NCBI GenBank assembly: GCA_045580265.1 | Contig: JAZNNM010000002.1 | Location: 114,721-178,720 of the forward strand | Direction: 5' to 3' | Source: Elusimicrobiaceae bacterium | GTDB taxonomy: Bacteria > Elusimicrobiota > Elusimicrobia > Elusimicrobiales > Elusimicrobiaceae | DNA: 64,000 nucleotides | Shown here: piece after piece, positions 1,399-35,460 of the stretch | How positions within the stretch are numbered: position 1 is the first letter of the stretch | Layout of the letters: each line of letters opens with the position of its first letter | Notes under the pieces: generated by a model | Told to the model about the DNA's origin: nothing | Databases searched by the model: none | The model's input: only the letters and a program-made list of their open reading frames with translations | Position numbers and translations under genes: made by a program

Positions 1399-4300
1399 AA
1401 GAAAATCGTTTGGAAGTCCAAACCGAATTAAATGTAAACATGGTAGTAGAGGCCGGTGCCGGTACGGGAAAAACGACTCTTCTTATCGATCGTTTATGTT
1501 TGGCTGTTTTGGTTCGCGGTATAGCAGTGGAAAAATTGGTAGCGCTTACTTTTACCGAAAAAGCCGCTGCCGAAATTAAAACTCGTTTTATTTTTAAACT
1601 GCAAAAATTAATACAAACCATCAAACTTCAACGCGTAGCCAAACAAAAGTTGGATAACAAAGAACCGTTAACTCAAGAAGAAGAAAAAGCGGTAAAAGAA
1701 TCGGACAAAACACTCGATTTGTTGCGGGAGTATTTTATGGATAATGCTCCCGAAGTAATTCAGGAACCCTTCGAAAAACGACAAGAAAAATTAGAAGATT
1801 TATGGACGCTTCGTGCAGAAACGGCACTGGCGCGTTTGGATCGCAGTGCTATTGGTACCATTCACGGTTTTTGTGCTGATATTTTGAAGGCATTTCCGTT
1901 GGAAGCGGGTTTAACCCCTAACGCGGAAATTGATTCCGGCCAAAAGAGTGATCGCTTATTTGAATGTCATTGGAATGCTTTTTTGGATGTGGAATTGGGG
2001 GAACAGGCTCCGCGGGAAGAAATGTGGAGAAAACTCTTGCCGGAATTATCCCTTCCCGATTTAAAAAACTTTGCACGAGAATTATGTAGCGGAAAGATAG
2101 ATCTCTACAACTATTGGAGCCATGCGGAAATGTTGGCCGATATATGTAAGAGAAAAGCCTCTTTGGCCAGAGAAATGAGCACCGCTTTCTTGGGACCTAA
2201 AAAGCAGCTTCGCCGTTCGGAGAAAGCGCTTCTTTGGGCGGAAAAATCACTCTTAAGAACAGTCTCTTTTTTACGTAAAGCCCCTTTCCCTCCCGCACCG
2301 GAAGAAGAACTGCCTGCTTTCCCTGATGATCCTGTTACGGGTTGGGAAGAAGATGCCCATGAAGAGGCTAAAGCATTGGTTTCTTTTGCCGAAAAAGTTA
2401 CCCCTGAAAAACAACAGTTATTTTTATCTGCTTGGGAGTTGGTTAAAGACGTGGCAGACCGTGTTCGCGGAGAATTCTCGCGTGAAGGAATCTTAAGTTT
2501 TGATGACCTAATTGTTAAAACGCGCAATTTGCTGCAAAAAGACTTATACGTTCGTCGGTTGTTGAAAGAAAAATACGATGTTTTATTCGTAGATGAATTT
2601 CAAGACACGGACCCTGTTCAAGGGGAGCTGTTGCTTTTTTTAGCGGAAGAAAAAACTTCCTTTGCTTCTCACTGGAAAGAGGTAAAGCTTTCTGCCGGAA
2701 AATTGATTGTAGTGGGGGACCCGAAACAGTCAATTTATCGTTTTCGCGGTGCGGATATTACGGCTTATGAACTCTTTACCGATCTTATTTTAAAACAGGG
2801 TGGAAAAAAATGTTTTCTGCAGCGAAATTTTAGAAGCGTACCCGACATCGTATCTACGGCCAATGCGGTTTGTTCGGGAGCGATGGTGTATGAATCTTCC
2901 TTTCAACCCGCCTACGTACCCATTTTCCCTACCAAGCCTGTTGTAAAGCCGGCGGTAGAATGGCTGTTTATTAATTTGAGTGATGAAGCACGGAAATATG
3001 CCAAAGAAAAAGCGGATTTATATCGCCATAATCAAGGGGAACAAATTGCTCGCTGGATTGAAGAACACGTGGGCAGCATGAAGCTTTCCGACGGGAGAAA
3101 ACTTTCTTATCAGGATATTACGATTTTATCTCGCGCTTCCACTACTTCCGGTCCATATGTAGATGCCTTGCGTCGACACGGAATTCCGTTTAACGTGGAA
3201 GCAGATAAAGATTTTTATCGCAAACAGGAAATTCATGATTTTTTAAATCTTTTGCGCGTGGTAAACGCTCCGGATGACCATGTAGCTTTGACAGGGGTAT
3301 TAAGGAGCCCTTTCGGCGGTTTTACTGATGAAGAAATTTATCAAATTGCCAAACGAGGAGAGTTAAATCTCTCCGCTTCGAGCCAAGATCTTCGTTTGGT
3401 TGAGTTTTATTCACTGCTTCGACGTTTAGTCAATCAATTAGGAAGGGTTCCGTTAAAAGAATTTTTGTCGGGAATTTTGGCGGATACCTTTTTGCCTCAA
3501 TCGTGTGCTGTGGCCTATGATGGGGAACAAACGCTTGCCAACCTCAACCGTTTAGTTTTGTTGGCAGAAAGTTTCTGTGGAGAAAGTGCCGCCGGTTTGG
3601 GGCAGTTTTTGGCCAAGGTGGAAGATTTAATGAAAAATCACCCTGAAATGCTGGGAGCTCCCACTTCGGACGATGCTTTAGATGCCGTGTCCGTGATGAC
3701 CGTACATAAATCTAAGGGATTGCAATTTCCGGTTGTTATTTTGGCAGATTTATCCAAAAAAGATACAGGACGTCCTTCTAAAGATGGACATGTGTTTTCT
3801 TGGCAGCATAATATGCATGGCCTTCGCGTAGGAAAGATAAGAGATATCAACTTGTCTTTTTTGGAAGAAGAACAGAAAAAACATGGTCGTTGTGAAGAAA
3901 TTCGCGTTTTATATGTGGGATTAACACGTGCCGAAGAATGTTTGGTTTTAGTGGCGGATAATCGAAAAAATGCTTCTCAATTGTCCCAAGCATTTGTAAA
4001 TTGTGGCCTTTTTCCGGATGGGGAGAATTTGAAAGAGGTTTTGTCTCATTCGGAAGTATCTGTTCCGGTGAATTATTTGCCTTATCGGGATCCGGAAGAA
4101 TTTATTTTTCGTTCCACCCAAGAAAAACAGAAAGTATTATTGGGGCCGTCTGCATCGGAATGGAAGAAAGCTTTTTCTGCCAGACAAGCCCAATACGAAC
4201 AGATGCTTGGAGAAAAAACTATGGCCCCCAGTGAACTGTCGGGGAATGTCCTTTTAAGTGAAGAACAGCGAATAGGGGCAGAAGTAGGCACCGTGTGTCA

Positions 4301-7730: not shown

Positions 7731-8513
7731 TTATAACTCAATAACCATCATGGAAGGTTTGATTAAGTAGAACAAGTTAATCAGGGCTCCCAAGCTTAAA
7801 AACGGCCCGAAGGGGATAGCATCGGACTTTTTTTTCCCTTTGAAAATCATTAAGAAAATAGCATACACAAGCCCAAAGAAGGAGCCCAAAATAACGGTGG
7901 TAATAACACCTTCCCAACCGATTAAAGCCCCTACGCCTGCCATTAACTTCACATCACCGCCGCCCATAGCTTCCTTTTTAAACATCCAAGTTCCCAAAAG
8001 GGCAATTGCAAGTACTCCGAATAAACCGGCTCCTGCTCCTAACAGGGAAAGCAGCTCCTTCTGCCACCAGATGCCTTCAAAGTTCGGGTTACACCAGGCG
8101 AACGTAAGGCCCCATACAATAAGCCCCAAGGAAAAGCGGTCGGGAATAATCATAAGCTCTAAATCAATGACGGACAACGCAACCAGCGCATATACAGCCG
8201 CGAGTACGACAAAAGTCCAAATCGTTAATCCCAAATGCCACACAAAGAGCAAGGTGAGCGCACCCGTTAAAAGTTCCACAATGGGGTATTGCATGGAAAT
8301 GGGGTTTTTGCATTTGCGACATTTTCCGAGCAAAAACAGATAACTGAGAACGGGGATATTATCGTACCAAGCGATGCGTGCTCCGCATTTGGGGCAACCC
8401 GAAGGCGGCCAAACGATAGATTTGTCTCGCGGGATACGGTAGATGCAGACGTTTAAGAAACTGCCCACAATCAAGCCGAAAATAGTGGCAAAAGTAAGAA
8501 TAAAAGTTTCCAT
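7731..8513 (-). CDS. pilD: Prepilin peptidase (A24 family)
   Basis: GSFLNVCIYRIP, CPKC and CRKC zinc motifs, IDLELMIIPD, MGGGDVKL, IPFGPFL. GGAG RBS favours ATG 8513. Confidence 0.93.
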   Translation of the reverse strand: METFILTFATIFGLIVGSFLNVCIYRIPRDKSIVWPPSGCPKCGARIAWYDNIPVLSYLFLLGKCRKCKNPISMQYPIVELLTGALTLLFVWHLGLTIWTFVVLAAVYALVALSVIDLELMIIPDRFSLGLIVWGLTFAWCNPNFEGIWWQKELLSLLGAGAGLFGVLAIALLGTWMFKKEAMGGGDVKLMAGVGALIGWEGVITTVILGSFFGLVYAIFLMIFKGKKKSDAIPFGPFLSLGALINLFYLIKPSMMVIEL

Positions 8514-8567
8514 ATTTAACTCCATAACATAAAAATCCCCCGCGCTTTACAGCCCGGGGGGAAAAGG

Positions 8568-8984
8568 TTAATGCGTGTGCCAGGCTTTGCCGTAACTGTC
8601 TTCCTTTTCAACATTTACGAAAAAATCGCCATAGCGCGGATCTGCCGGGTCGCTGATATAGGCCCAACCGCCTGTTTTGGTAAACGCTTGCTCAAAATTT
8701 CCGTGGGAAACATGGGCAGAAGGCGGATAACCGGGCACGGTGGCTTGCGGAATTTTTTCGATGTATTGCGGACTAAGACTGGAGAGATCATCAGTCGGGT
8801 AATTGCCCTGATGTTCCCCATAGTATGCGGCAATAGCACTGCGTACTTTTACCAATTTGTGTTTGGTGCTTCCCTCTTGGGCTTTGTGTACGAGTGCCAT
8901 AAATTTCGGCACGGTAAAACCAAACAGCAGTGCAAACACAACTACCGTAATAGCAATTTCCATGACCGTAAAGCCTTTTTTCAT
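8568..8984 (-). CDS. Type II secretion / type IV pseudopilin-like protein
   Basis: Class III signal MKKG|FTVME followed by a hydrophobic helix; GspG-like YYGEHQGNYP; adjacent to the prepilin peptidase. Confidence 0.8.
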   Translation of the reverse strand: MKKGFTVMEIAITVVVFALLFGFTVPKFMALVHKAQEGSTKHKLVKVRSAIAAYYGEHQGNYPTDDLSSLSPQYIEKIPQATVPGYPPSAHVSHGNFEQAFTKTGGWAYISDPADPRYGDFFVNVEKEDSYGKAWHTH

Positions 8985-8992
8985 ACACACCT

Positions 8993-10222
8993 CTATTTAA
9001 AGTTTAATGCCACGCGTACAAATACTTTGGCATCGCCCAACGTATTTTTGATGCTGGAATATTCGTTGGGTTGGTGAGCCATGTCATCGAGTTTGGAGCA
9101 GACCACAGCGGGGTAATTTGCATTGCGTAAGAAAGAACCCACTGTTCCGCCGCCCACACCCATGATGCGCGGTTCGTTTTTGTAAATAGCTTTAATGGAA
9201 TCGCGCGTTAATTTTACAAAAGCCGCTTTGTGGTCCGTCGGTTTAGAGGCTTCGTTAATGGCAATATCCATTTTAACCGTCACTTTAAATTGTTTTTCGA
9301 TTTTTTTAGTGATTTTGGCAATTTCCGCCAATACTTCCTTGTTGGAATAGCAAGGGAGTACGCGGCAATCCATGTAAAAGACATCCGTCCCCGGGATTGT
9401 ATTTACGTTCGGCACGTTTGCTTCACGTTTGGTCGGCTCGAACGTGCTGGTAACGGCAGGAGCGAAGAGTTTATCTTTTTTATTAAATTTTTTGCCGAGC
9501 GCATCAAAAGCTACAATCAGGTAAGAAGCCGCGCGATTGGCATTGTTGCCGGCATAGGGCATAGAAGCATGTGCTTGTTTGCCTTGAACGGTAAATTTAA
9601 TCCACAGCATATTTTTTTCGGCTACTTCCACCATGGTTCCGTCCGGGTTGCCTCCGTCCGGTACCAAGAAAACGTCCTCCTTTCCGAAGATTTTACCGTG
9701 CTTTTTCAAAATCGGTACTACACCGTAAAGGCTACCCATCTCTTCATCGGCATTGAGCAAAAGGGCATAATCGCAAGCGGGGCGCACATTACATTCCATC
9801 ATGGCTTTAACCGCTAATAAACCGGAAACCAATCCTTGGTGATTGTCTTCGGAACCGCGCCCATAGATTTTATCCCCTTTAACAACCGCTTTGAACGGAT
9901 CGGTTTTCCATAGGGATAAATCTCCGGGGGGAACAACATCCATATGTGCCATAACCCAAAGGGTTTTCTTTCTGTTTTGACCGTAATAGCGGGCAATAAT
10001 GTTCGGGCGCACACCGCCTTCGGCCTTGGGATCTTTGATATTAATGACGGAAATTTCATCAAATTTCATTTGTTTTAAAACGGAAAGTAAATAAGCGGCT
10101 TTTGCGCTTTCACCTTTGCCGCCTTCTTGAGGGGATAATGCCTCGAGCGGAATCATGTTGCTTTGCAAATCGATGACGTCTTGCTTGTAAGAGTCAATTT
10201 TTTTAAATAAAGTTTTTTCCAT
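8993..10222 (-). CDS. M20 family metallopeptidase (DapE/ArgE-like)
   Basis: AHMDVVP, YGRGSEDN, DEEMGS, GKQAHAS and AHQPNE metal-binding motifs. Confidence 0.9.
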   Translation of the reverse strand: MEKTLFKKIDSYKQDVIDLQSNMIPLEALSPQEGGKGESAKAAYLLSVLKQMKFDEISVINIKDPKAEGGVRPNIIARYYGQNRKKTLWVMAHMDVVPPGDLSLWKTDPFKAVVKGDKIYGRGSEDNHQGLVSGLLAVKAMMECNVRPACDYALLLNADEEMGSLYGVVPILKKHGKIFGKEDVFLVPDGGNPDGTMVEVAEKNMLWIKFTVQGKQAHASMPYAGNNANRAASYLIVAFDALGKKFNKKDKLFAPAVTSTFEPTKREANVPNVNTIPGTDVFYMDCRVLPCYSNKEVLAEIAKITKKIEKQFKVTVKMDIAINEASKPTDHKAAFVKLTRDSIKAIYKNEPRIMGVGGGTVGSFLRNANYPAVVCSKLDDMAHQPNEYSSIKNTLGDAKVFVRVALNFK

Positions 10223-14844: not shown

Positions 14845-16536
14845 CTATAAATAGGCAGACAAGGCACTTAAGGCCCAAAGTACAAAAAATTGTCCGTCAA
14901 TTAACGTTTCGTCTTTTACGCTGCGGGTAGTGCTTTTGCTGTAATAATATACCACTATCGAAATTGTGTATACAAGCCCGAGTAAAAGCATGGCAACTAG
15001 CGATCTTTTCCACGGTAAAGACCACAGAATACCCAATACCGCCGCTAAAGAGACCAGCAAGGACGTGACTACCCATTTTGTTTTTTTCATACCAAAAGCT
15101 TTGTAAAAACTTTCTCTTCCAATGATAAGGTCTTTATTGGCAGAAGAAAATCCAAGCGTTACCGAACGCATAAATATCAGCAATATAGCATAGAAAATAG
15201 CTAAATACGAAGATTTTTTAAACAACATGCCGTTCGTTAAAGCCGGCAAAAATGCACAGCAGTATCCCCAACCAAGGGCGGTAAAAAAATCTTTGGTTCC
15301 CGGTAGAGAAAGAAGTTTGGACTTTAAGAAGTGGCGTGAAGGATACAACAGCCCTCCCACCAAAATAGGGAGCGTTAGCAATACTACCCAAATATCAATC
15401 ATTCCTCCGATTAACAAAGCAAATAAGAGGGAAGTGTAGCACAACCCGCGCGTAAGTTTGTGCGTACTTTGCGGTTTATCCTCATATACTCGGTTGAGGG
15501 ATGTTAATCCGAAAATGAAAAGCCAAGAAAAGAGGACGTATTTCCAATTAAACGGCAGCCCTTCCAATTTCATACACACATAAGTTAGGGCCGAAGCTGC
15601 AGAAGCCGTATACAGACAGTTACGTACTAAAAATTGCCATGCTTTTTGACAAAGATCAGCCGGTAAAAAAGCCGCATTGGATTTGCGTAATTCGCGTACA
15701 AATGCAGCCACGCGGTCAATCACCCAGTTAGGGGTGGAAGCTCCGGCCGTGATAAAGATTTTCTTGGCTTTCAATACTGTTATTTTATCCAGTTCTTCTT
15801 CCGTTTCTACGTGTTGTACGGCGGGGGCAAGGTCTTGGCACAAAAGTGCTAAGCGAGCTGTATTGGCACTATGTTTACCTCCCACAACAATTACCAAATC
15901 GGCACTTTTGGCCAGTTCGATGGTTTCTTTTTGGCGGTCTTTGGTTGGTTGGCAAATGGTGTTGGATACTTGGCATTCATCTGCGTGTTTTTTTATTTCT
16001 TCCGCTGTGGCATAAAAGACACTTTCTTTTTGTGTGGTTTGAGAAACAACGTTTACTTTGTCAAAATGCGGAAGTTGAGCGGCTTCTTCAGGGCCGGAAA
16101 CAACAGTGCCTTTTCCTTGTGCGTATCCTAGCAGGCCGATAACCTCGGCATGTCCTCCGTCCCCTACAATAACGGTATGATAACCTTGCTCGGCAAATTT
16201 AGCGATAATATTTTGTGCATGCTTTACCAACGGGCAGGTGGCATCTACTACTTCCATTCCGCAAGATTCGATTTCTTTTTGAAATTTGGGCGTAATGCCA
16301 TGAGCCCGAATGACGAGCACTCCATTTTTATCGGAGGCATCTTGCGGGTGATCAATAGAAGTAATTTGCTTGGCAGCCAACATATCGGTTACCTGTTTGT
16401 TATGAATCAGGGGACCGATGGTATAAACGGGTTTTTTGCCCGCAGCTTCCAGCTCCAGTACTTTATCTATTGCGCGTTTTACGCCGGGGCAGAACCCTGC
16501 GCTTTTGGCGACGGTAACGTCTTGTTGTTTCTCCAT
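14845..16536 (-). CDS. ispH: 4-hydroxy-3-methylbut-2-enyl diphosphate reductase fused to a C-terminal polytopic membrane domain
   Basis: AGFCPGV, DATCPLV, TICQPT, GGKHSANT and TAGASTP motifs in the first ~280 aa; the remaining ~270 aa are multi-TM. Confidence 0.9.
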   Translation of the reverse strand: MEKQQDVTVAKSAGFCPGVKRAIDKVLELEAAGKKPVYTIGPLIHNKQVTDMLAAKQITSIDHPQDASDKNGVLVIRAHGITPKFQKEIESCGMEVVDATCPLVKHAQNIIAKFAEQGYHTVIVGDGGHAEVIGLLGYAQGKGTVVSGPEEAAQLPHFDKVNVVSQTTQKESVFYATAEEIKKHADECQVSNTICQPTKDRQKETIELAKSADLVIVVGGKHSANTARLALLCQDLAPAVQHVETEEELDKITVLKAKKIFITAGASTPNWVIDRVAAFVRELRKSNAAFLPADLCQKAWQFLVRNCLYTASAASALTYVCMKLEGLPFNWKYVLFSWLFIFGLTSLNRVYEDKPQSTHKLTRGLCYTSLLFALLIGGMIDIWVVLLTLPILVGGLLYPSRHFLKSKLLSLPGTKDFFTALGWGYCCAFLPALTNGMLFKKSSYLAIFYAILLIFMRSVTLGFSSANKDLIIGRESFYKAFGMKKTKWVVTSLLVSLAAVLGILWSLPWKRSLVAMLLLGLVYTISIVVYYYSKSTTRSVKDETLIDGQFFVLWALSALSAYL

Positions 16537-17655: not shown

Positions 17656-18357
17656 TTATTTGAAAGAGGGTTTATAAATGAAAGAAAGCAAACTGTCTTT
17701 TACATGGTCTCTTCGCCAAGAAAAGAAGTTTTCTTTATCTCCGCAAGTGCAGTAATAGGGGAGTTTTATGTCGGTGGCTTCAACGCCGGCTGCTACGAGT
17801 TGTTGAGTAATTTCCGTATTTAAATTTACAAAAATTTTTCCTTTTTTATGTACAACACTCCTGGGAGAGAATTGGCAGGCTGTATCTTCTTGTACCTCAA
17901 AACAGCAACTCTGAATATGCGGTCCCGCCCAAGCAAAAATTTTCCCTTTTGCTCCGGCTTGGCGTAATGCTAGGGCTGTTTTGTTCGGAAGCTGTTTTAC
18001 TACACCGCGCCAACCACAATGAGAAAGTGCAAAATGATCGCCTGTTTCATTCCACAAAAAAAGAGGCACACAGTCGGCTGTTAAAATAGCCCCGCCCCAA
18101 CCATCTACAGAAAAAACCCACCCATCTGCTTGTTGAAGGGGAGCCTTTTGCACCGCCAAAGCGTCTTCTTGAGAAGAAATGTTTATTAACGTGTCGCTAT
18201 GGGTCTGTGAAAAGTGGAGTATTTTTTGGGGGGGAATGTCCAACTCTTTATAAATAGTTTCTTGCGCTTGGAGTTCGCGCATATTCCCCGTGTGACGAGA
18301 AAGCGTTCCGCCCACAAGGCCGCAAGAGAGCATTCGGTTATCGGCATAGATTTTCAT
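17656..18357 (-). CDS. pgeF: YfiH/PgeF polyphenol-oxidase-like (laccase domain) protein
   Basis: QTHS, ADG, LTADCVP, SHCGWRG, GPHIQSCCFEV and FFSWRR motifs. Confidence 0.88.
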   Translation of the reverse strand: MKIYADNRMLSCGLVGGTLSRHTGNMRELQAQETIYKELDIPPQKILHFSQTHSDTLINISSQEDALAVQKAPLQQADGWVFSVDGWGGAILTADCVPLFLWNETGDHFALSHCGWRGVVKQLPNKTALALRQAGAKGKIFAWAGPHIQSCCFEVQEDTACQFSPRSVVHKKGKIFVNLNTEITQQLVAAGVEATDIKLPYYCTCGDKENFFSWRRDHVKDSLLSFIYKPSFK

Positions 18358-19154
18358 ACGTTTAATTTTTTGAGCCGTACAGATGACGGTTTTTCCTCTA
18401 GTAAAATACCGGCCATTTCTTTAAAACGTTTAGGGTCATCGCTGGCATAAACGGTCAATTTTCCCCTTCCTTTGCTTTCCGCACAGTTTTGTTTTGATAG
18501 GAAATCCTGTACGGCTTGCGCTAACGTTTCGGAGGAGTCGACCAGTTTTACTTTTTTACCTAAGATTTTAGTGAGTAACGGTTTTAAAATGGGGTAATGG
18601 GTACAACCTAAAATAACGGTATCCGCTCCGCTTTTGGCTACTTTTTTTAAGTATTCTCGTGCAATCAATTCCGCTGCGGGTGTTTTGCCCCAATTTTCTT
18701 CCACTAAGGGAACAAATAGCGGGCAAGGCTGTTCTACTGTTTGAATGGTTGGAGAAAGTTTGGACAAGGCATGAACATATGCCTTGCTTTTAATGGTTCC
18801 TTCCGTCCCCAGTACAGCTACTTTTTGATTGTGCGTGCTTTGCACGGCTTTGGCTGCCCCCGGTTCAATGACGCCGATAACCGGCACAGCAATTTGCTTT
18901 TGCAATTGTGTTAAAGCCAAGGCGGAAGCTGTGTTGCAGGCAACTACGATAAGTTTGGCTTGCTGTCCTTGTAAAAACTGAGCAATTGCCAGAGAAAAAC
19001 GAGTGACGGCGTTTTTTGACTTGGACCCATAAGGTACGTTGGCGGTATCCCCGAAATAAATCAAATCTTCGTGGGGAAGTGTTTGACGAAGAGCCTTTAA
19101 AATCGTCAAACCTCCCAGGCCGGAATCAAAAACGCCAATAGGTTGCTTTTTCAT
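18354..19154 (-). CDS. murI: Glutamate racemase
   Basis: IGVFDSGLGG, VACNTAS and LGCTHYP motifs. Confidence 0.96.
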   Translation of the reverse strand: MKKQPIGVFDSGLGGLTILKALRQTLPHEDLIYFGDTANVPYGSKSKNAVTRFSLAIAQFLQGQQAKLIVVACNTASALALTQLQKQIAVPVIGVIEPGAAKAVQSTHNQKVAVLGTEGTIKSKAYVHALSKLSPTIQTVEQPCPLFVPLVEENWGKTPAAELIAREYLKKVAKSGADTVILGCTHYPILKPLLTKILGKKVKLVDSSETLAQAVQDFLSKQNCAESKGRGKLTVYASDDPKRFKEMAGILLEEKPSSVRLKKLNV

Positions 19155-19238
19155 ATAAGCTATTATAGTATTTATTCGGGAGAGGTGCCAATTTGGAAAA
19201 AATTTCCCTCTTGCTCTTCTTTGTGCTAGAATATCAAT

Positions 19239-20726
19239 ATGTGTAGAAAGGTTTTGTTGGTTTTTTCTTGCGCTCTATGTTTAAGCGTGGCGGCTTTTGC
19301 TGCACAGGCAGATTCCCCTTCGGCTTTGATTGTAGGGGGGAGTTTCTCTGCGCAAGCCAACACCTCTGCTCATCAACAAGTTTTCAATCAAAAAGCTCGT
19401 AATGCAGAAATTGCTTCTCTGAACGAAAAATTAAGAAATAATCAATACGAAGATGTAATTAAACGCATCAATTCTTTAACGGCGCGTAACTTTTTGGATA
19501 ATCGGTTCCACCTGCTTTTGGCGCTGGCTTATGACGGTCTTGGACGTTATGATGATGTTATCTACTCCGCTTCTCAAGCCATAGCGGTTGCCCCGCAAGA
19601 TTCTCGTGCGTATATTTTGCGCGCCGGAGCTTATTTGCACTTGGAACAATATGAACGCTGCCGAATGGATTTGGACAATGCCATTAAATTAAATCCTTCT
19701 TCTAAATTAGCTCAAAAAATCGAAGAAGAATTAAATGAAAAAACGTTTGTTAAGAAACCTAAACCGGAACCGATTTCTACTCCTAAAAAACAAACTCCTC
19801 GTTGGATAATTTTTTATTTTCTGGCTATTTTTGCCGCCATTTTGTTGTATGTATACTGGCGCTACGAAGATTTATTCCATCAACCCAAAAGTGCTTTTTC
19901 TCGTAGAGAAGTAGAGGTGAAGGAACAGTACGATTTTATTCGCCAAATTGGGGAAGGCGGCATGGGAAAAGTGTTCGAAGCCTACGACCGCGTGCTTAAA
20001 CGTAAGGTAGCCATTAAACGGGTCCGTCCGGAATTAGTGCGCAGCTCGTATGTAAGAGAACAATTCCTCTCGGAAGCGCGAATGGTAGCGCTCCTACGTC
20101 ACCCGTGTATCGTGGAAATTTACACTGTTATTGAATCGGAAAGTTCGCTCTATTTAGTATTTGAGTATGTGGACGGACAAACTTTAGAAACTCGTTTGGA
20201 TATTGATGGCCGGTTGCCTTTTTCCAAAGCAAAACAAATTTTCGAACATGTTTGCCGTGGGCTTCATTACGCGCATTCGCAAGATATTATTCACTGCGAT
20301 TTAAAACCCGGAAACATTATGATCTACGATGAAGAAAAAGCAAAAGTAATGGATTTTGGTGTGGCTAAAAAATCGGTAGATCATGAAACCGGCGCTCGTA
20401 CGGTAGCCGGTACCCCCGCTTATATGGCCCCCGAACAACAAAAAGGATTTATGCGCAAACAATCAGACGTTTACTCTTTGGCCTTGTGTTTGTATGAAGC
20501 TTTAGTGGGACAGGTTCCGTGGACGGTAAAAGGATTTGATATTGCCAATAAAAAAATTGTGCCTGCTTCCAAATTGGCTCCGAATATTCCGCCGGAAGTA
20601 GATTTGTTATTGGAAGATTCTTTAAAAGAAGAACCCAAGGAACGTGTCCAATCTATCGACGAGTTCTGGAGCCGTTTGCAAGCAATAGAGCCCTTAGAAG
20701 AAGATTTGGAACAAACACATTATTAA
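19239..20726 (+). CDS. Membrane Ser/Thr protein kinase: signal peptide, TPR region, TM helix, C-terminal kinase
   Basis: GEGGMGKV, VAIK, HCDLKPGN, DFG and GTPAYMAPE motifs; TPR-like ALAYDGLGRY...AYILRAGAY; TM WIIFYFLAIFAAILLYVYW. Confidence 0.9.
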   Translation: MCRKVLLVFSCALCLSVAAFAAQADSPSALIVGGSFSAQANTSAHQQVFNQKARNAEIASLNEKLRNNQYEDVIKRINSLTARNFLDNRFHLLLALAYDGLGRYDDVIYSASQAIAVAPQDSRAYILRAGAYLHLEQYERCRMDLDNAIKLNPSSKLAQKIEEELNEKTFVKKPKPEPISTPKKQTPRWIIFYFLAIFAAILLYVYWRYEDLFHQPKSAFSRREVEVKEQYDFIRQIGEGGMGKVFEAYDRVLKRKVAIKRVRPELVRSSYVREQFLSEARMVALLRHPCIVEIYTVIESESSLYLVFEYVDGQTLETRLDIDGRLPFSKAKQIFEHVCRGLHYAHSQDIIHCDLKPGNIMIYDEEKAKVMDFGVAKKSVDHETGARTVAGTPAYMAPEQQKGFMRKQSDVYSLALCLYEALVGQVPWTVKGFDIANKKIVPASKLAPNIPPEVDLLLEDSLKEEPKERVQSIDEFWSRLQAIEPLEEDLEQTHY

Positions 20727-27050: not shown

Positions 27051-28136
27051 TTACAGTCGCAGCCACTTAAATTCTATAAAGAGAATCAGCGAGAAAAATA
27101 TAGCCGGCCCCCAACCTGCCACAAAGGGATTGAGTAACCCGTTTTCCCCAAAAGAAGTAAACATGGACATCATCCACCAAAACGAAAAAGCGATTACAAT
27201 AGAAGCTAAAATGTTTAAAATTTTACTTTTTCTGCGGGAGCTAATGGCAAAAGGCATGCCCAATAAACACATAATAACCGTTACAAAGGGACTGGCCAAG
27301 CGGGATTGGCGCATAGTTTCGGCCGAGTAGTGTGCAAGACCGCTTTTCTTTTGAAAGTTAATACGTTTGGTTAAATCTCGGATACTTAACAAATCGGGAT
27401 CTGTTTTATTAACGGACATATCTTCCGGCTTGGTTTGCATGGGGGAAACCGTTTGTTCGAAAGTTTCTTCTTCCGTATCCATTTTGTTGGCAAAAGTGCG
27501 TTTAATACCGTTTGCAAATAGCCAACTGGAAGAGGCCGGATCCCACACCATTTGGTCGGCCACAATTTGGTTTGCAATATCCCACCCGTCATTATAAGTA
27601 TCCAGCGATACTTGTTTCATCGTTCCTTTTTTAAGGTCTACTTCTTTGGCAAAAAGCATTTGATAGGGGGAAATTTTAATAACAACATCATGTTCCGTAT
27701 GTTGGTTGAAATCCGCTCTTGCTTTGATGCGGGTGTAATAAATTTCGTCTGCTTTTAAGTTAAGGGGAGGGACAACAAATTCTTGCATAAAAAGTGTTAG
27801 GGTAACAACGGTTAAAATGCAAGCTACAACCGGTTTAAATAAATCTCTCGGGGCAAATCCGCCTGCCACACAAGCTGTCCATTCTCCGTTGGAAACCATT
27901 TCGGAAATGGTGGAAATGGCTCCCAATAAACAAGCCACGGGCATAATGGTGGTAAGCCAGTTGGGAAATGTTAGCAAAGAATAGGAAAGGACGTCCAACA
28001 TGGTAGTGGTGCCGTTGCCGAGATTTTTCATTTTTTCAAAGGTATCTCCTAATACCACTAATGCGGCAAAAACACCCAGGGCAAACAAAAAAGGTCCCCA
28101 AAATTTTTTGGCAATATAAAAATAAATGCGATACAT
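27051..28136 (-). CDS. lptG: LPS export ABC permease (LptF/LptG family), second gene of the pair
   Basis: IYFYIAKKFWGPF, MPVACLLG...NGEWTA, central beta-jellyroll, C-terminal TMs with AGWGPAIFF. Confidence 0.82.
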   Translation of the reverse strand: MYRIYFYIAKKFWGPFLFALGVFAALVVLGDTFEKMKNLGNGTTTMLDVLSYSLLTFPNWLTTIMPVACLLGAISTISEMVSNGEWTACVAGGFAPRDLFKPVVACILTVVTLTLFMQEFVVPPLNLKADEIYYTRIKARADFNQHTEHDVVIKISPYQMLFAKEVDLKKGTMKQVSLDTYNDGWDIANQIVADQMVWDPASSSWLFANGIKRTFANKMDTEEETFEQTVSPMQTKPEDMSVNKTDPDLLSIRDLTKRINFQKKSGLAHYSAETMRQSRLASPFVTVIMCLLGMPFAISSRRKSKILNILASIVIAFSFWWMMSMFTSFGENGLLNPFVAGWGPAIFFSLILFIEFKWLRL

Positions 28137-28138
28137 AA

Positions 28139-29233
28139 TTAAATATTAAGCCTCTTTTTCCAAAGCCAATAAGCGGCACCTATCCCAGTGATAACCGGTA
28201 ACCACGGGCCGGGGTAAGATATCCAAGCATATTTTTTACCGAGAGAAAGACCGAATGTCATGAGTAAGTAAAAAGTAAAAATAATAATTACGCTAAACAA
28301 CATTCCCCACCCTTTGTTGGTGCGTTTGCCGAAAGAAAAACCAATCGGACAGCTGACAAATAACAAAATAATAGGCGACAAGGCCAACACATTTCTCATG
28401 CTGATAGTCGTTTTGTATTCATTGGCGAGTTTTTCTTCTACAAGTCCCGTGCGTAATAAACGTAAGAGTTTGGTGGTGGTCATTTCGCCTACCTTGCGGC
28501 TTCTCTCTCGGTCGCGCACGAGGGAAATGCTCATAGTATAATCATCGAAATTGGCAGCAATAATGGAGGAATTATCTTTTTCGTCAATACGTTGCATTTG
28601 TCCGTCTTCCAATTGAAGACCGATGGCCGTATCGGTTAAAATTACTTTGCCGGATGTGGCATTTACTTTTGTGCTTAAAGCTCCGCTATCATTCTTTTTG
28701 ATTAAATGGATTAATTGAGCCGTATGGGTGGACGGATCAAGCTTTTCTAAATACAAATCCCAGTCGCCTAAATTAATAAAAGTTTTGGGTTCCAACGTTA
28801 CTTTGGTAATTTTGCTGCGGGCTTCTTCGCGTCGTTCCAAAAAACGCTTGTAACTGCGCGGGGTGAGCCAGTTGCCAAGTACAAACAAAAGAACGGATAA
28901 CGTAACAGCACAAATAAGAAGAGGACGAACAATTTCTTTAAACGAGAAACCGGCCGCACGCAACGCAATCAGTTCCCCGTGTTCGCTCATGTTGGTTAGG
29001 GTTAACAAAACCGCAATTTGAAATGCCATCGGAGCGCTTAAACAAAATACGTCCGGAAGGATGTTAAGTAACGACGACGCAATCCACCCTATTCCGGTGC
29101 CGTACGTCATAGCCATATCCAACACCTTGATGGAGCGCATCATAAAAATGACAAACGTCAAAATCCCGGTTACCCCGGCAAAAAAGGTAAGCAGGCTTTT
29201 GGCTATATAGCGGGAAAAGATGCTAATGTTCAT
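28139..29233 (-). CDS. lptF: LPS export ABC permease (LptF/LptG family), first gene of the pair
   Basis: IFSRYIAKSLL, LSAPMAF...HGELIALRAAGFS, PKTF, 3+3 TM layout. Confidence 0.85.
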   Translation of the reverse strand: MNISIFSRYIAKSLLTFFAGVTGILTFVIFMMRSIKVLDMAMTYGTGIGWIASSLLNILPDVFCLSAPMAFQIAVLLTLTNMSEHGELIALRAAGFSFKEIVRPLLICAVTLSVLLFVLGNWLTPRSYKRFLERREEARSKITKVTLEPKTFINLGDWDLYLEKLDPSTHTAQLIHLIKKNDSGALSTKVNATSGKVILTDTAIGLQLEDGQMQRIDEKDNSSIIAANFDDYTMSISLVRDRERSRKVGEMTTTKLLRLLRTGLVEEKLANEYKTTISMRNVLALSPIILLFVSCPIGFSFGKRTNKGWGMLFSVIIIFTFYLLMTFGLSLGKKYAWISYPGPWLPVITGIGAAYWLWKKRLNI

Positions 29234-29348
29234 CTTTATTATTCTAACAAAATATCACGTTGTAGGGGCGGAAAATCATGCCTATGTGGGTAAATCGTAC
29301 GCGCGGGGCGGAATTATTATAAAATGAAAGAATGAGGTATTTTTCCCT

Positions 29349-32300
29349 ATGAAAATACTGCGGTTGTTTGTCGCCCTTTTGTTAATCCTCCAGTTAATGT
29401 TCGCCCCGCCGGCGGGTGCCGAAACGCTACCTTATACGCTGGTGGATAGGGACCAGTATTCTATTTTCGAAGAGGACCAAGCCGCCAAACAGGAAGAAGA
29501 ACTGCAAATTACTGACCCTCCGGACGACGCACAATTACTTAAATACACCAACGAATTTTGGCGCCAAGCGGTAACAGCGGTGGAAGGTTCCTACCGTTTG
29601 GACAAGGAGCCGGAACCCATTCCGGACTTGACCCTTTTAAATCCGACCCTTTCTTTGCCTATTTATGGTACGAGTATCGCCTTGACGGGACGTTATGTGT
29701 TGGGTTTTAAATTTGCCGGTAAAAAATACAAAGAAGACGATAATAACGATATCGACGATCGAAATACCCACAGTCTGGAAATGGCGCAAGAACTGCAACT
29801 TAAAATGCAGGGTAAGATTTTGGAGCGTGTATTTGTAGATATCGATTATGATGATCAACGGGAAGAGGAAAAAACGCTTTCTGTGGCCTATCGCGGAAAA
29901 GCAGGGGAACTGGTACAACTTGCCGAATTCGGGGATATTAATCTTTCTTTGCCACAGACGGAATTTATTGCCTACCAAAAACAACTTTTCGGGGCGAAGA
30001 TGCACCTGCAACACAAAAATGCCAACCTGTATTTGATCGGTTCGCAAACCAAAGGTTCCAGTAAGCAAAAGCAATTTATCGGCAGCAGTGTGTCGGAAAT
30101 CGTTTCCATCGCCGATACTGACTATATTCGCCGTAAATACTACGACTTGACTTTCGGCGGAAATATTCATCCCATTGATAACGACGCTGCTTACTTGCAG
30201 TGGCGTAACGACATGGGCAACATTTCTCCCGGTTCAGAGGAGATTTATTTAGACAGCAACACCACCTCTTCCGATTATGTGCCGATCAATAAAACGGCTA
30301 CGGACTACTTGGGTACGGTGCCGTACCAAGCCCAGTGGGAGCTCCTTACCCGCGGGGTGGACTATACGGTGGATTATGCGCGCGGTATTATTACCTTCAA
30401 CCGTTCCATTACGGCCGAAAGTGTGATTGCGGTAGATTACAGAAGTACCAGCGGGGAACAACTAAGTGCTATGGGGGCCACGCCCAACACCATTAAACTT
30501 ATCAAAACGGAAAATGACAAAGCGTGGGAATCTTTTACGGAAGAGACCTCCAATAAGTTGGAAATGAAAACGTTTTACAACATCGGCGCACAAAAAATTA
30601 CCCAAGACAATGGAAAAGGGAATTTTATTTTACGTTTGATGGATGCCAACGGGCAAGAAGTGGGGGAAATGGCTTCTCCCAAACAAATATATCCAAGCAC
30701 GATAGAAGTAGATTTTGATAAAGGTCTTTTTGAACTTCAAAATCGCATGGTGGACGATTTGGGGCTTTATAATGTAACGCCTACCTCTTCCAGAAACCGC
30801 ACTTTTAAGATTCAATATGAATCTACGGTCAAAACCTATTTCATTGAGTCCGACATTGTTATCGAGTCCGAAAGCGTAAAACTAAACGGTCGTGCTTTAA
30901 CGCGTAATAACGATTACTATATCGATTATACTTCCGGTTTTATTACCTTCTACAAAGGTGATGAAATTACCGAAAATTCCGTTATCGATATTACTTATGA
31001 TACCACCACCGGTTCCAGCTCCAACAACTCGGTGTTGGGCGGCCGGTTGGATTATCATTTGTTTGACAAAATCGTTATGGGAGCAACCCTTTTACAAGAA
31101 GGCGGAGACAAACCTTCCACTGTTCCGCAGGTAGGTGCTTACAATAAAAATTTGTTGGTGTACGGGGCGGACATCAACGGGAAGGATATTAAATTGGCGG
31201 AGCCCGTGTCGGTAGATTTTAGTGCCGAAGTAGCCAAAAGCCGTAAAGATCAAAATATGTTCGGCTATGCCATGGTGGACAGCATGAACGACACCCAAGA
31301 AAAAGTGGGCGGTTCTTCCGATTTTAGGGAATGGATTATTGCTTCCAACCCGAATAATAACCCCAACTTTTTAAATGCCATCCGCTGGGACACGCAAGAT
31401 TTGCCTGCGTTGGAAATTAACCCCAACTCTATTGCTAACTATAACGATAAACAACAGGTATTAGTCATCAACTACGATTTCAGCCAAAGTGTTGGCACAT
31501 ACGCGGATAGAGACGAAGTTTCTATCGTGTATCCACTTAGTACCAGCGGTATAGATTTGTCCGAAAAGACCTCATTCGAGCTTACTATGCTTGGCGAAGA
31601 AGGGGGGCCTCAGGTAAACTTTACATTCGGTAACATTTCGGAATATTCCGATAATTCTTTGGGTATGGACACGCAATGCGGAACGGGGGTACCCAAGACC
31701 GAAGATATCTATTGCCGCAACAGTTTGGCTCCGAACGAAGATATCGGCTGGCTTTACACCAACCCGGACGGTTCAGAAGAACGCTATAACCCCTTTGTAA
31801 ATAATGTTTACAACCCCGAATCCCAACCTAACGGACGCATTGATACGCAGGACTTGAACAACAACGGTAAATACGATGAGGCCGATGCCTTGGCTGTTTG
31901 GGGCGGGCAAGGAAACTTCGGTTTTGCGGGTACATCTATCGACGGTATGACAGGTAGCTATGCTACTAATACCAAATGGCAAACCTATACGGCGCCGCTT
32001 TTAATTAACGATAAAAGTGCGTGGACGGCTGTGCGCCATTTGCGTATTACCCTTAAAAAAGGGGAAAAAACAAAAGGGCAAATTAAAATTGCCAATGTGT
32101 CTTTGTCCGGCACGGCTTGGAACCCGAAGGAAGGTGTTTCTACGGATATTTTCTCGGTATCGGGGATTAATAATGTGGATAATTCCAACTATCAACCCAT
32201 TTTTGCCGATCGCCAAGGGGACGGATTAAGGGTATTTAATTATCTTTACGGTTCTGTGAATAATTATAAGAAAAACAGCGATTCCGCCAACGCGCTCGAC

Positions 32301-34718
32301 CAAGCCCTTAACATCACTTTTGATACTACCCAAGTGCCTGCTGTTGCGGATAACGACCCTACTGATTCCCCAGATGGAGAATTGTACGCCAACCGAAACT
32401 TTAAATCCATGGACTTTACCCAACACCGAGAGTTCCGCTTTTTGGTTCACAGTTCGCCGGAAAACCAAGGTTCTGAATTTTTCTTAAAAGTAGGGACGGA
32501 CACTAATTACGATAAAGTAATCGTTCCCTTAACGGACGATTTCAACGGTTGGCGCCTGATTTCTCTCAAAATGATAGATACCAACGGGGACGGTATCACC
32601 GATACATTTGAAAACGTATCTGACGAAAACTATCAAGTGCGTGTGGAAAATCATCGGGCTCCCAACGGGGTTCTTAATTTCAAAGAAATCAGTATGATTT
32701 TGGCCGGTGTACAACGCCGCAAAAATGAGAACGGAACGGAAGAAACGGGTAGCCGTGGGCAAGTGTGGTTAAACGTGATTCACTTGGCGGAAGCCATTAC
32801 GTTGGAAGGTGAGGCCTACAAAGGTGATGTGGTATTAAAATGGGACGGTTGGGGGAGTGCCGGTGCGAAGTACAAATACCAAGACAATAATTTTGAAACC
32901 CCGTTAGCCGTTTCCAAAAATCAAGAGGTAACGGAAGAGGAATACTTCGTAAAAGTGGACCGTATTAAAGAATTCCCCATGCAGGCCAATTTAACGCGCA
33001 GCAGCGTTACCACTCCCTTAGTTACCGATTCTACCGACTACAACACCGTCAGTTTGCTGGATAAAGGAAAAGTAGACCGAGAGCGTGCTGTTATCCGCGG
33101 GGATTTTATCAAAGAAAATATGCCCAAAATCGGCTTAGAATATACGTTGGATAAAGTAGATTACGATGCCATGAAACGTAAAGACGATTCCCAAACTTAC
33201 GGGGCTACTTTATCGCATACGACCGGATCTTTTAAAAATATTTCTCTCGGTTATCACGTAACGGATTCCAGCGTGAGTTATGATCCGGTCCGTCATCAAG
33301 AATCGGAAAATTTTTATAACACGGATGAAAATACTCAAAAATTAAATATGAAAGTTTCCTATCAGCCGAATAATAATTTCATATTTACACCTAATTATAA
33401 TTTAACTAAAAGTAAAGAAGACCGTTCCCGTTACGAGTTCTCCACTCAGGAGCATTTAAGCTATCCGAAAGCATTAAATCAAAGTACCGGTTTTAATACT
33501 ACTTGGAAAATTACCAAGTGGTTGGCTCCGTCAGTCAATTATAATGTCAGTACCGTGGAAAATAACAACCTTACCGCCAAAACCATTACGGCTTCGGGCA
33601 GTAGTGTGTCGGTGGGCGTAGGGGATGTAAAAACGGTTAATCGTAATGCTGACGGGGGCGTGACACTAACCTTAAACGGAAACGAAATTTTGCCCAACAG
33701 CAAGTTGTTTAACACGTTTGTGATCTCGTCCAGCTACCGTATTCAAGATGCGGACTCGTGGGCTGATGTAGACAGCGGTTTTGATTCTCGTAAAGAGTTG
33801 TGGGTGCGCCGCTCGTTAAAAGACGTGGGGGAATTCGGTTATCGCAAAAGTATGACGTTGCGCGATACGTTTACTTCTACGCAACGGTGGAATCCTTTCT
33901 CTCAATATAATTTAACGGGTGCGGCCGCTCCGCTTAAAACAATTTCGCTTATTAACAACTTTACCAAAACCTTACAGACCAACGAACAAACCGGTACAGA
34001 ATATGATTCCGAAAGTCTTACTTTGCCGGATGTCACTTTTTCTATTTCGGATTTAGAAAAAATCTTCTATGGAAGCCGTTGGTTTAGTTCTTCCAATTTA
34101 AAACTACGTTATAGTTGGGTTGAACAAACTAACACCGGTACGGACGAGCAATATACCACCCAATACGGGGGAGATTTGCGGTTTATGTTGTTTAACTATT
34201 TTGATACGGTGTTTAATTACACTAAAAAGGAATCCGATAAGACTGACCTTCGCGCCGGCACCAGTTTGGAACGGATTGATGATAATAATTTTTCCGCACA
34301 GACTTCTTTCTACATCGGTTCTTTGCGTGTCACTCCTAAACTACTTTATACTTCGCACGATAAGTGGCTTGTTCGCGGAAAAATCAGCGAATCGTTTACG
34401 GAAACTACCCCCAGTGTGAATTTCCGGTGGGACTTTAATATCCCGCGTGGATTTAAATTGCCGTTTATTAACAAAATGTATAATACCACCAACCGTGTGA
34501 TATGGAACACAAACCTTAGTTACACGGACAAACGATCGGAAGTAGAAGTGAAAGATAACTACAAAATGTTTGATTTCAGTACTTCTTTTGATTACGAACT
34601 TTCCCGCAATTTACGTTTTACATTATCGGGTGGTCTTACCGTGCTGGACCATGCGTACGTAGCTACAGAAGATTACACTGCCTACAATATGGCTGCTAAC
34701 GTAACAGTACAATTCTAG
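29349..34718 (+). CDS. Very large outer-membrane beta-barrel protein, SprA/Sov (T9SS translocon)-like
   Basis: 1789 aa; signal peptide; N-terminal block QELQLKMQGKI...DYDD...AEFGDINLSLP...KQLFGAK recalls the SprA N-terminus; long C-terminal amphipathic strands; ends in TVQF. Family call is from recalled motifs. Confidence 0.65.
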   Translation: MKILRLFVALLLILQLMFAPPAGAETLPYTLVDRDQYSIFEEDQAAKQEEELQITDPPDDAQLLKYTNEFWRQAVTAVEGSYRLDKEPEPIPDLTLLNPTLSLPIYGTSIALTGRYVLGFKFAGKKYKEDDNNDIDDRNTHSLEMAQELQLKMQGKILERVFVDIDYDDQREEEKTLSVAYRGKAGELVQLAEFGDINLSLPQTEFIAYQKQLFGAKMHLQHKNANLYLIGSQTKGSSKQKQFIGSSVSEIVSIADTDYIRRKYYDLTFGGNIHPIDNDAAYLQWRNDMGNISPGSEEIYLDSNTTSSDYVPINKTATDYLGTVPYQAQWELLTRGVDYTVDYARGIITFNRSITAESVIAVDYRSTSGEQLSAMGATPNTIKLIKTENDKAWESFTEETSNKLEMKTFYNIGAQKITQDNGKGNFILRLMDANGQEVGEMASPKQIYPSTIEVDFDKGLFELQNRMVDDLGLYNVTPTSSRNRTFKIQYESTVKTYFIESDIVIESESVKLNGRALTRNNDYYIDYTSGFITFYKGDEITENSVIDITYDTTTGSSSNNSVLGGRLDYHLFDKIVMGATLLQEGGDKPSTVPQVGAYNKNLLVYGADINGKDIKLAEPVSVDFSAEVAKSRKDQNMFGYAMVDSMNDTQEKVGGSSDFREWIIASNPNNNPNFLNAIRWDTQDLPALEINPNSIANYNDKQQVLVINYDFSQSVGTYADRDEVSIVYPLSTSGIDLSEKTSFELTMLGEEGGPQVNFTFGNISEYSDNSLGMDTQCGTGVPKTEDIYCRNSLAPNEDIGWLYTNPDGSEERYNPFVNNVYNPESQPNGRIDTQDLNNNGKYDEADALAVWGGQGNFGFAGTSIDGMTGSYATNTKWQTYTAPLLINDKSAWTAVRHLRITLKKGEKTKGQIKIANVSLSGTAWNPKEGVSTDIFSVSGINNVDNSNYQPIFADRQGDGLRVFNYLYGSVNNYKKNSDSANALDQALNITFDTTQVPAVADNDPTDSPDGELYANRNFKSMDFTQHREFRFLVHSSPENQGSEFFLKVGTDTNYDKVIVPLTDDFNGWRLISLKMIDTNGDGITDTFENVSDENYQVRVENHRAPNGVLNFKEISMILAGVQRRKNENGTEETGSRGQVWLNVIHLAEAITLEGEAYKGDVVLKWDGWGSAGAKYKYQDNNFETPLAVSKNQEVTEEEYFVKVDRIKEFPMQANLTRSSVTTPLVTDSTDYNTVSLLDKGKVDRERAVIRGDFIKENMPKIGLEYTLDKVDYDAMKRKDDSQTYGATLSHTTGSFKNISLGYHVTDSSVSYDPVRHQESENFYNTDENTQKLNMKVSYQPNNNFIFTPNYNLTKSKEDRSRYEFSTQEHLSYPKALNQSTGFNTTWKITKWLAPSVNYNVSTVENNNLTAKTITASGSSVSVGVGDVKTVNRNADGGVTLTLNGNEILPNSKLFNTFVISSSYRIQDADSWADVDSGFDSRKELWVRRSLKDVGEFGYRKSMTLRDTFTSTQRWNPFSQYNLTGAAAPLKTISLINNFTKTLQTNEQTGTEYDSESLTLPDVTFSISDLEKIFYGSRWFSSSNLKLRYSWVEQTNTGTDEQYTTQYGGDLRFMLFNYFDTVFNYTKKESDKTDLRAGTSLERIDDNNFSAQTSFYIGSLRVTPKLLYTSHDKWLVRGKISESFTETTPSVNFRWDFNIPRGFKLPFINKMYNTTNRVIWNTNLSYTDKRSEVEVKDNYKMFDFSTSFDYELSRNLRFTLSGGLTVLDHAYVATEDYTAYNMAANVTVQF

Positions 34719-34719
34719 T

Positions 34720-35460
34720 ATGAAGACAAAAAAATCTTTTATCCGAACGGTATTTTCTTATTTCTTACATTTCCTGTTCCCGAAAACTTGTCTTGCTTGC
34801 GGTTGTGATTTAGATGCGCAGACTCAACATTCCTTATGTTCGTGCTGTTTAGCTGCGCTCAGAACCCCCGGCCCGCTTATTTGTCGGCGTTGCGGAGCTG
34901 TATTAAAATCGGGAGGAGCGCATTGCTATGCTTGCCGCGGAACTAAAGCCAAAAAATACAAATGCTCAGTAATTCGTTCCGCTTTTGTTTTTAATGATTC
35001 TTCTCGGGCGTGGATACATGCACTTAAATATGGCGGGGCCGATTATTTGGGAAAAGAAATGGGCAAAGAGATGTCTCTTAGATTTTGCCGCTATCCGGAA
35101 CTGTCGGAAGCAGAGTTAATAATACCCGTCCCACTTTTTTCCAAAAAATATCGTCAACGCGGATATAACCAAAGTGAACTTTTGGCACGGTCTTTTTCGG
35201 CAGAGTTATCGCTGCCGTTGGATAAAAATTCATTGAAGCGTATTCGTCATACCGTCAGCCAGACAACGCTTGGCAGAAAGGAGCGTTTAGAAAATATGGC
35301 GGGAGCTTTTGTATGCATAAACCCGAAGGCTGTTTACCGAAAAACCATTTTATTGATTGATGACGTTGCCACCACGGGGGCTACGCTGGAAGGATGCGCT
35401 CAGGCCCTCAAACAGGCAGGAGCCAAGAAGGTGCTGGCTTACACTTTTGCTCGAGAATAG
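34720..35460 (+). CDS. comF: ComF family protein (double zinc ribbon plus PRTase)
   Basis: CLAC, CSCC, CRRC and CYAC cysteine pairs; LKYGG; RGYNQSELLA; LLIDDVATTGATL. Confidence 0.92.
   Translation: MKTKKSFIRTVFSYFLHFLFPKTCLACGCDLDAQTQHSLCSCCLAALRTPGPLICRRCGAVLKSGGAHCYACRGTKAKKYKCSVIRSAFVFNDSSRAWIHALKYGGADYLGKEMGKEMSLRFCRYPELSEAELIIPVPLFSKKYRQRGYNQSELLARSFSAELSLPLDKNSLKRIRHTVSQTTLGRKERLENMAGAFVCINPKAVYRKTILLIDDVATTGATLEGCAQALKQAGAKKVLAYTFARE

Follow-up and report, generated by a model that had tools for sequence, protein, structure and literature searches.

A SprA-like giant barrel encoded across Elusimicrobiota is a candidate translocon of a type-9-like protein secretion module

Background

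A gene for a giant outer-membrane barrel protein of 1789 amino acids (aa) is located in a 64,000-nucleotide stretch of DNA, called here the window, from the genome of a ruminant-gut Elusimicrobiaceae bacterium (assembly GCA_045580265.1, contig JAZNNM010000002.1, positions 114,721 to 178,720). Homology to SprA/Sov extends along the entire protein, minus about 600 residues of SprA inserts, and its gene, present in one copy, is part of the core gene set of the phylum Elusimicrobiota rather than a peculiarity of the source genome. From sequence, structural models and the genes that accompany it in the phylum we consider it probable, with considerable reserve, that the barrel serves in the outer membrane as translocon for a type-9-like module of protein secretion, and that this module is among the core features of the phylum.

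Type 9 secretion systems (T9SS) were described in 2024 as restricted to Bacteroidota and a small number of further phyla of the FCB (Fibrobacterota-Chlorobiota-Bacteroidota) group, their genes being "absent from other bacterial phyla" (PMC11285876). A full-text search of the literature on Elusimicrobia and Endomicrobia with T9SS, SprA or PorV found no description of a system of this kind. Its parts are visible in databases, since precomputed annotation places PF14349 (SprA_N) on some members of the barrel family and PGAP-type models match the carriers and cargo tails, but they have not been put together. The source assembly (1.43 Mb, 21 contigs) is 99% complete.

Sequence homology to SprA

The barrel gene has the following features, given in coordinates of the window.

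29349..34718, plus strand: SprA-family giant outer-membrane barrel gene (P0001), open reading frame of 1789 aa with TIGR04189, profile and Foldseek matches
29349..29420, plus strand: probable Sec signal peptide, residues 1-24, cleavage after AGA, read from the translation
29670..30113, plus strand: N-terminal block of barrel-type strands, residues about 108-255, nine modelled strands, the most SprA-like segment
30114..32753, plus strand: middle region, residues about 256-1135, beta-rich soluble domains according to models and colinear blocks of the hidden Markov model (HMM) alignment
32754..34715, plus strand: C-terminal barrel wall, residues 1136-1789, ending in Phe, from the AlphaFold model and Foldseek

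An earlier sequence-only reading of the window had proposed a SprA/Sov-like pore, naming the 1789-aa frame, a signal peptide and the terminal TVQF, and all of these are present. The N-terminus, MKILRLFVALLLILQLMFAPPAGA followed by ET, looks by eye like a Sec signal peptide, and this region is modelled as a helix that leads into a low-confidence linker; the C-terminus reads ...NVTVQF.

The NCBIfam model TIGR04189 (SprA) matches the barrel protein with 104 bits (E=3.8e-30) in three stretches within the N-terminal 700 residues, the best of them (residues 111-267) containing the N-terminal strand block; in a six-frame search of the source genome the best score of this model was 59.7 bits. Neither a single-sequence phmmer search with the barrel protein nor a profile of its close homologs (64-93% identical to the query) matched anything in the PDB. 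Taken alone, these empty searches would wrongly imply that there is no relation to SprA, and a profile of homologs about 30% identical was needed. An exhaustive search with residues 1-1200 against 1.84 billion representatives yielded 758 relatives, 481 of them at E<=1e-10; those with names belong to Elusimicrobiota, Endomicrobiia, Desantisbacteria or an unclassified "bacterium", and nearly all are annotated as hypothetical. Profile A2, composed of 24 homologs about 30% identical to one another, aligned colinearly with SprA of Flavobacterium johnsoniae (PDB 6h3i_A) at E=1.4e-40. The N-terminal strand block corresponds to family-profile positions 121-236, which are aligned with SprA 149-266. Profile A3 (108 sequences) matched the same chain at E=6.9e-37 in four ordered blocks, 119-235, 305-394, 474-556 and 781-1171, which correspond to SprA 152-270, 428-544, 697-779 and 1158-1625. 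Past about profile position 1200, HMMER gave no sequence-level match to SprA.

The six motif strings that had been quoted as SprA-like are all found in the protein, at residues 147, 166, 192, 212, 338 and 834. They lie in exactly these four A3 blocks, and when solved SprA is aligned by HMM they fall opposite the corresponding segments of SprA. Profile and SprA motifs pair as QeLqvrikGkVg with QRISMSLMGKIG, FGDItlsLP with VGNVSMPLN, qlFGiK with SLFGVK, DYtiDy..g with EYTFNPQLG and DYSVDYQLG, and DteDLDrdg with DVEDINRDN.

Predicted structure

Two overlapping halves of the protein were modelled with AlphaFold2 from a 43-sequence alignment and compared with the PDB by Foldseek. The model of residues 590-1789 has a mean pLDDT (predicted local distance difference test) of 85.2, that of residues 1-1200 one of 76.3. 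With both halves the four SprA chains came first: at E 2.4e-35 to 8e-31 (TMq 0.49-0.54) for residues 590-1789, the next match having 2.2e-5, and at E 1.8e-43 to 1.2e-33 for residues 1-1200, the next match having 1.9e-4. A significant relation to SprA, on which the proposal of a shorter SprA-family pore depended, is thus found both by profile (E=1.4e-40) and by structure, SprA chains being the only strong matches of either half; the size of 1789 aa agrees with the same proposal.

In the half-models, long strands assigned by DSSP number about nine at residues 108-255, four at 561-634 and 28 at 1136-1787. The total of about 36-41, which is approximate as it comes from two overlapping half-models, is compatible with the 36 strands of the SprA barrel (PMC10994853). 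The C-terminal region of some 600 residues, for which alternating beta-strands had been read from the sequence, corresponds to the 28 long strands, which are consecutive. According to the models, the beta-rich domains of the middle region (about 256-1135), broken up by the four long strands at 561-634, are probably cap and inserts, and a giant barrel plus cap would be the architecture common to the barrel protein and SprA.

Distribution in Elusimicrobiota

Our survey of the phylum comprised 121 Elusimicrobiota genomes from 53 genera. The barrel gene was matched in 116 of these genomes and 52 of the genera, almost always as one full-length open frame of 1650-1940 codons. The close homologs are named Elusimicrobiaceae or Candidatus Avelusimicrobium, which bears out the earlier impression of a host outside Bacteroidota. 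The DNA occurs in sheep, goat and bovine gut metagenomes, and a search of public sequencing runs for RNA evidence returned DNA runs only.

Most genomes without the barrel gene belong to a single genus whose genomes are very small (1.0-1.4 Mb). In one of these (G022, 1.1 Mb) only C-terminal SprA-like remnants are left (C1:953509-954109), interrupted by internal TAG, TGA and TAA stops, and PorV-family genes are absent. The impression is one of pseudogenisation in a lineage that is reduced and probably endosymbiotic.

Some metagenomic records deserve mention beside these genomes. One contig (L008:10001-22106) encodes two tandem SprA-family giants of 2181 and 1843 aa, followed by secDF, and near them a 1827-aa protein whose C-terminus exceeds the Por_Secre_tail cutoff (30.4 bits). 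Several records of metagenome-assembled genomes titled "Clostridia bacterium" (L038, L040, L041, L045, L047 and L069) carry a SprA-like gene of the Elusimicrobiota type, preceded in L040 and L045 by LptF/LptG genes, and the taxonomic labels of these bins look wrong.

PorV-like carriers and candidate cargo

The phylum encodes many PorV/PorQ/PorP-like barrels of the 14-strand type, whose genes often come immediately downstream of those for large secreted proteins with a terminal Ig-like sorting domain of T9SS type (C-terminal domain, CTD). NF033709 (PorV/PorQ family) was found in 117 genomes, over its cutoff in 85 of them, frequently in 10-16 or more copies and usually in at least 10 in free-living lineages. 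PF18962, the T9SS C-terminal sorting domain, was found in 80 of the 121 genomes and 50 of the 53 genera (over cutoff in 68 genomes, with up to 33 matches per genome) and in none of 14 control genomes. At no fewer than 17 listed places, a CTD match and a PorV-family match share a strand, and the CTD match stops 108-764 bp upstream of the other.

A free-living representative (G020) contains three tandem pairs, each of a large fn3/LamG protein with C-terminal FlgD_ig/Por_Secre_tail followed by a PorV/PorP-like barrel (positions 2248-3612, 8360-10072 and 18275-19630 of locus L033, G020:C10:62000-81999). In these barrels TPR repeats are fused to the C-terminus, joined in one of them by an OmpA peptidoglycan-binding domain, an architecture that to our knowledge has no counterpart among Bacteroidota carriers. 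A CTD protein followed by a PorV-like barrel also stands beside the SprA-like loci of G020 and L007. The four genomes without NF033709 (G022, G089, G115 and G117) are all devoid of an intact SprA-like gene and make up four of the six genomes in this state (Fisher p=1.8e-6, uncorrected for shared ancestry).

In the source genome, scanning of the signal-peptide proteins with a C-terminal aromatic residue revealed a candidate carrier, a 321-aa barrel encoded on the minus strand of another contig (C20:2788-3756). It scores 90.7 bits with NF033709 (cutoff 90), 58 bits with the PorQ equivalog (cutoff 220) and 20.5 bits with the PorV equivalog NF033710 (cutoff 250), and no paralog of its gene was found in the genome. 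The gene lies directly downstream of that for a 1576-aa secreted surface protein with FlgD_ig repeats, whose last 130 residues read FYPNP...GVYF...KVVKILVP. The pair is kept in a relative (carrier 79% identical) and is followed by a Tad pilus operon. The pore is therefore not stand-alone, one of the two possibilities that the sequence-only reading had named beside a divergent system. The search for CTD-bearing cargo which that reading had recommended was positive in the phylum, through the PF18962 matches, and gave one sub-threshold candidate in the source genome, the 1576-aa protein; phmmer with the last 110 residues of this protein detected no further cargo with the same C-terminal domain there.

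Other candidates in the source genome were discarded. A 13-bit match to NF033710 proved to be a true FadL/TodX protein and not PorV, and the other large signal-peptide proteins were either an autotransporter of the Chlamydia-PMP type or unrelated or orphan proteins. Among these large proteins, two are encoded at C4:161527-164838 and C4:154071-157151, one a 1102-aa autotransporter with Chlamydia-PMP repeats, the second a signal-peptide protein of 1025 aa that ends in ...ISFEF and matches neither a family nor a PDB entry. At C12:17637-31694 three paralogous signal-peptide proteins (1299, 1725 and 1566 aa), with near-identical N-termini and the shared ending ...NTQAY, are encoded in tandem.

Motor proteins and the canonical T9SS

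Substrate release in known T9SS takes energy, which the proton-driven motor has to supply (PMC10994853). This lends weight to an explanation in which the barrel belongs, as translocon, to a canonical T9SS that is complete and whose motor and ring proteins (PorL/M and PorK/N) have diverged too far for the searches used; type 9 secretion would then be of the ordinary kind, only in a phylum where it was not expected. GldM had no match in a six-frame family search of the source genome and none at E<=1e-3 in the 121 genomes of the phylum; no control genome matched either, there being no T9SS-positive control, so the GldM negative is weak. The sole GldL match in the same six-frame search reached 12.9 bits and belongs to a coiled-coil TPR protein (CpoB-like) beside Pal and TolB, which is not GldL. 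Negatives of the six-frame search are weak as well, because it missed the PorV/PorQ-like gene of the source genome with both NF033710 and PF19572, and only a third model finds the gene. Against hidden motor genes speaks the fact that a very diverged SprA was still detected by the same kind of search, and we regard a complete canonical T9SS as unlikely. The sequence-only reading had remarked that such a system elsewhere in the genome would make the barrel ordinary; none was found via GldM, GldL, TIGR04183 and equivalog-level PorV searches. Its statement that the window contains no T9SS parts agrees with the annotated reading frames of the window, none of which encodes one, although not every small frame was scanned.

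The barrel locus, lipopolysaccharide export and ComF

The neighbourhood of the barrel gene is composed of the following features.

27051..28136, minus strand: second LptF/LptG-family permease gene (PF03739, E=1.4e-70)
28139..29233, minus strand: gene for an LptF/LptG-family permease of lipopolysaccharide (LPS) export, in divergent orientation to the barrel gene (PF03739, E=7.2e-68)
29234..29348, no strand: divergent intergenic region of 115 bp between the lptF-like and barrel genes, from the coordinates, with presumed promoters
34720..35460, plus strand: ComF-like gene with double zinc ribbon and phosphoribosyltransferase (PF18912 and PF00156)

Of 53 evaluable loci that come from named genome records, 35 have two LptF/LptG genes divergently upstream of the barrel gene, and the arrangement is kept at 31-34% protein identity; a ComF-like gene follows directly downstream in 43 of 68 evaluable loci of relatives. 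Both counts are underestimates, because they come from single-sequence phmmer. Larger and more distant relatives (2056-2486 aa) occur without this lptFG/comF neighbourhood. The window has 41-47% G+C and housekeeping content (AddA-like helicase, ValRS, LeuRS, ClpB, tmRNA, lptF/lptG).

Such a setting can be read differently: the barrel may be a housekeeping factor of outer-membrane biogenesis linked with LPS export, such as a channel through which LPS-associated components are assembled or exposed at the surface. It would then have SprA ancestry and no role in secretion. A near-universal single-copy core gene in a housekeeping region of the chromosome, paired divergently with two lptF/lptG genes down to 31-34% identity, would suit such a factor, and so would the failure to detect LptD (PF04453) in the genome. 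The PF04453 search, however, also missed Bacteroides among the control genomes. Moreover, the source genome has an lptC-lptA-lptB cluster and a 731-aa protein with an LptC/LptD_N jellyroll, so that the Lpt pathway probably has an outer-membrane end of its own, and replacement of LptD by the barrel is unlikely. Co-occurrence and adjacency with carriers and CTD cargo point instead to protein export, and the distant, larger relatives do without the lptFG link. We therefore judge a purely housekeeping role rather improbable. The 731-aa protein (C2:49611-51806, minus strand, in the source genome; also L032:1611-3806) has the jellyroll at its N-terminus, followed by about 600 residues without Pfam or PDB sequence match, and is probably a very diverged LptD that escapes PF04453.

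A channel for uptake of DNA or other import, working with the ComF-like protein whose gene is so often the downstream neighbour and here starts 2 nt past the barrel stop codon, is most improbable, since ComF proteins, which resemble phosphoribosyltransferases, are generally known from the cytoplasm or in association with the inner membrane, the surroundings contain no further competence genes, homology and partners are those of an export system and no SprA relative is known to import; nothing was found in support of the import role that had been allowed for earlier.

Two further genes of the window were observed. A 563-aa frame at 14845-16536 (minus strand) has an IspH/LytB domain at residues 7-279 and, besides, a large C-terminal extension, and the 495-aa protein encoded at 19239-20726 (plus strand) begins like a signal peptide, contains a TPR repeat and has a Ser/Thr protein kinase domain at its C-terminus.

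Proposed function and its meaning

Several findings weigh against the barrel being the translocon of a type-9-like secretion module. The barrel protein does not reach the equivalog cutoff of TIGR04189 (200 bits), Pfam does not match its sequence, and its universal single copy next to lptFG also fits a housekeeping role in the envelope. GldL and GldM searches found no motor, although release in known T9SS needs one. As for cargo, the C-terminus of the 1576-aa protein matches PF18962 (15.4 bits) and CHU_C (15.0 bits) weakly, no protein of the source genome attains CTD thresholds, a six-frame search of that genome with the cargo tail TIGR04183 gave none, and PF18962 matched nothing in 20 listed genomes of the source genus. 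PorV-family barrels are no proof of type 9 secretion, as NF033709 is over its cutoff also in Bacteroides thetaiotaomicron, which has no T9SS. Finally, all four genomes that lost both pore and carriers belong to one genus of very small genomes, and the co-loss may thus be a single event of general envelope reduction.

If the barrel is nevertheless such a translocon, secretion might proceed by analogy with the structures from Flavobacterium (PMC10994853). Sec-exported cargo would enter the periplasmic mouth of the barrel, its C-terminal domain would bind loops of a PorV-like carrier docked at a lateral opening, and the complex of carrier and cargo would exit laterally, to the cell surface or into the outer membrane. 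As the GldLM motor was undetected, the carrier may come free spontaneously, or a different energiser may drive its release. In the source gut genome the system would be cut down to one carrier (the C20 barrel) and probably one cargo, the adjacent 1576-aa protein with a degenerate CTD. That the divergent pairing with lptFG is conserved suggests joint regulation with LPS export; more speculatively, cargo or carriers are perhaps anchored to LPS or packed with it.

A more far-reaching version of the translocon proposal, which we put forward tentatively and hold to be possible rather than probable, is that of an ancient, minimal type-9-like pathway consisting of outer-membrane parts only (pore, carriers and CTD cargo), which has no GldLM/PorKN energy chain and is genetically coupled to LPS export. 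If this were true, the translocon-carrier mechanism would predate the rotary motor or be separable from it, and type 9 secretion would not be an invention of the FCB group.

A SprA homolog that is a core gene in a phylum outside this group, where the families of carriers and cargo are expanded and a motor is not detectable, presents a natural test of which parts transport needs. With its 1789 aa the candidate translocon is also a smaller target for structural work and offers a handle on how the cell surface is built in the little-studied Elusimicrobiota of gut and groundwater, and the lptFG link makes the relation between LPS export and display of surface proteins testable.

Comparison with known systems

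With LptD, the barrel protein shares large size and a genetic context of LPS export next to lptFG, together with weak Foldseek similarity (E about 1e-4), as would be expected for any large barrel. It differs from LptD in lacking the jellyroll N-domain and in a structural match about 30 orders of magnitude weaker than that to SprA, and the source genome has a separate LptD-like candidate.

The carriers resemble PorV, PorQ and PorP/SprF. The C20 protein exceeds the cutoff of the NF033709 family, relatives match the Pfam families PorV and PorP_SprF, and the position of carrier genes directly downstream of large CTD-ending proteins recalls the pairs of type B CTD cargo and PorP-like genes in Bacteroidota (PMC9143113, PMC12618676). 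Unlike PorV and PorQ proper, the C20 protein is far below both equivalog cutoffs, and many copies in free-living Elusimicrobiota differ from PorV and PorP by fusion to periplasmic TPR and sometimes OmpA domains.

The closest known relatives are SprA of F. johnsoniae (PDB 6h3i, 6h3j, 8gl6 and 8gl8) and Sov of Porphyromonas gingivalis. SprA has 2403 residues, and its extra inserts lie between the aligned blocks. The barrel protein differs from both in coming from a phylum outside the FCB group in which GldL and GldM were not detected, and its gene, single-copy and core in this phylum, is placed between divergent lptFG and a downstream comF-like gene. The likeness consists of colinear sequence homology over roughly two thirds of the length and the same fold in both halves, as judged by Foldseek of the models. 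It extends to the order of parts, from signal peptide through N-terminal strand block and large beta-rich inserts to a long C-terminal wall ending in Phe, and to the company of PorV-family barrels and CTD-bearing proteins that the barrel keeps in its phylum.

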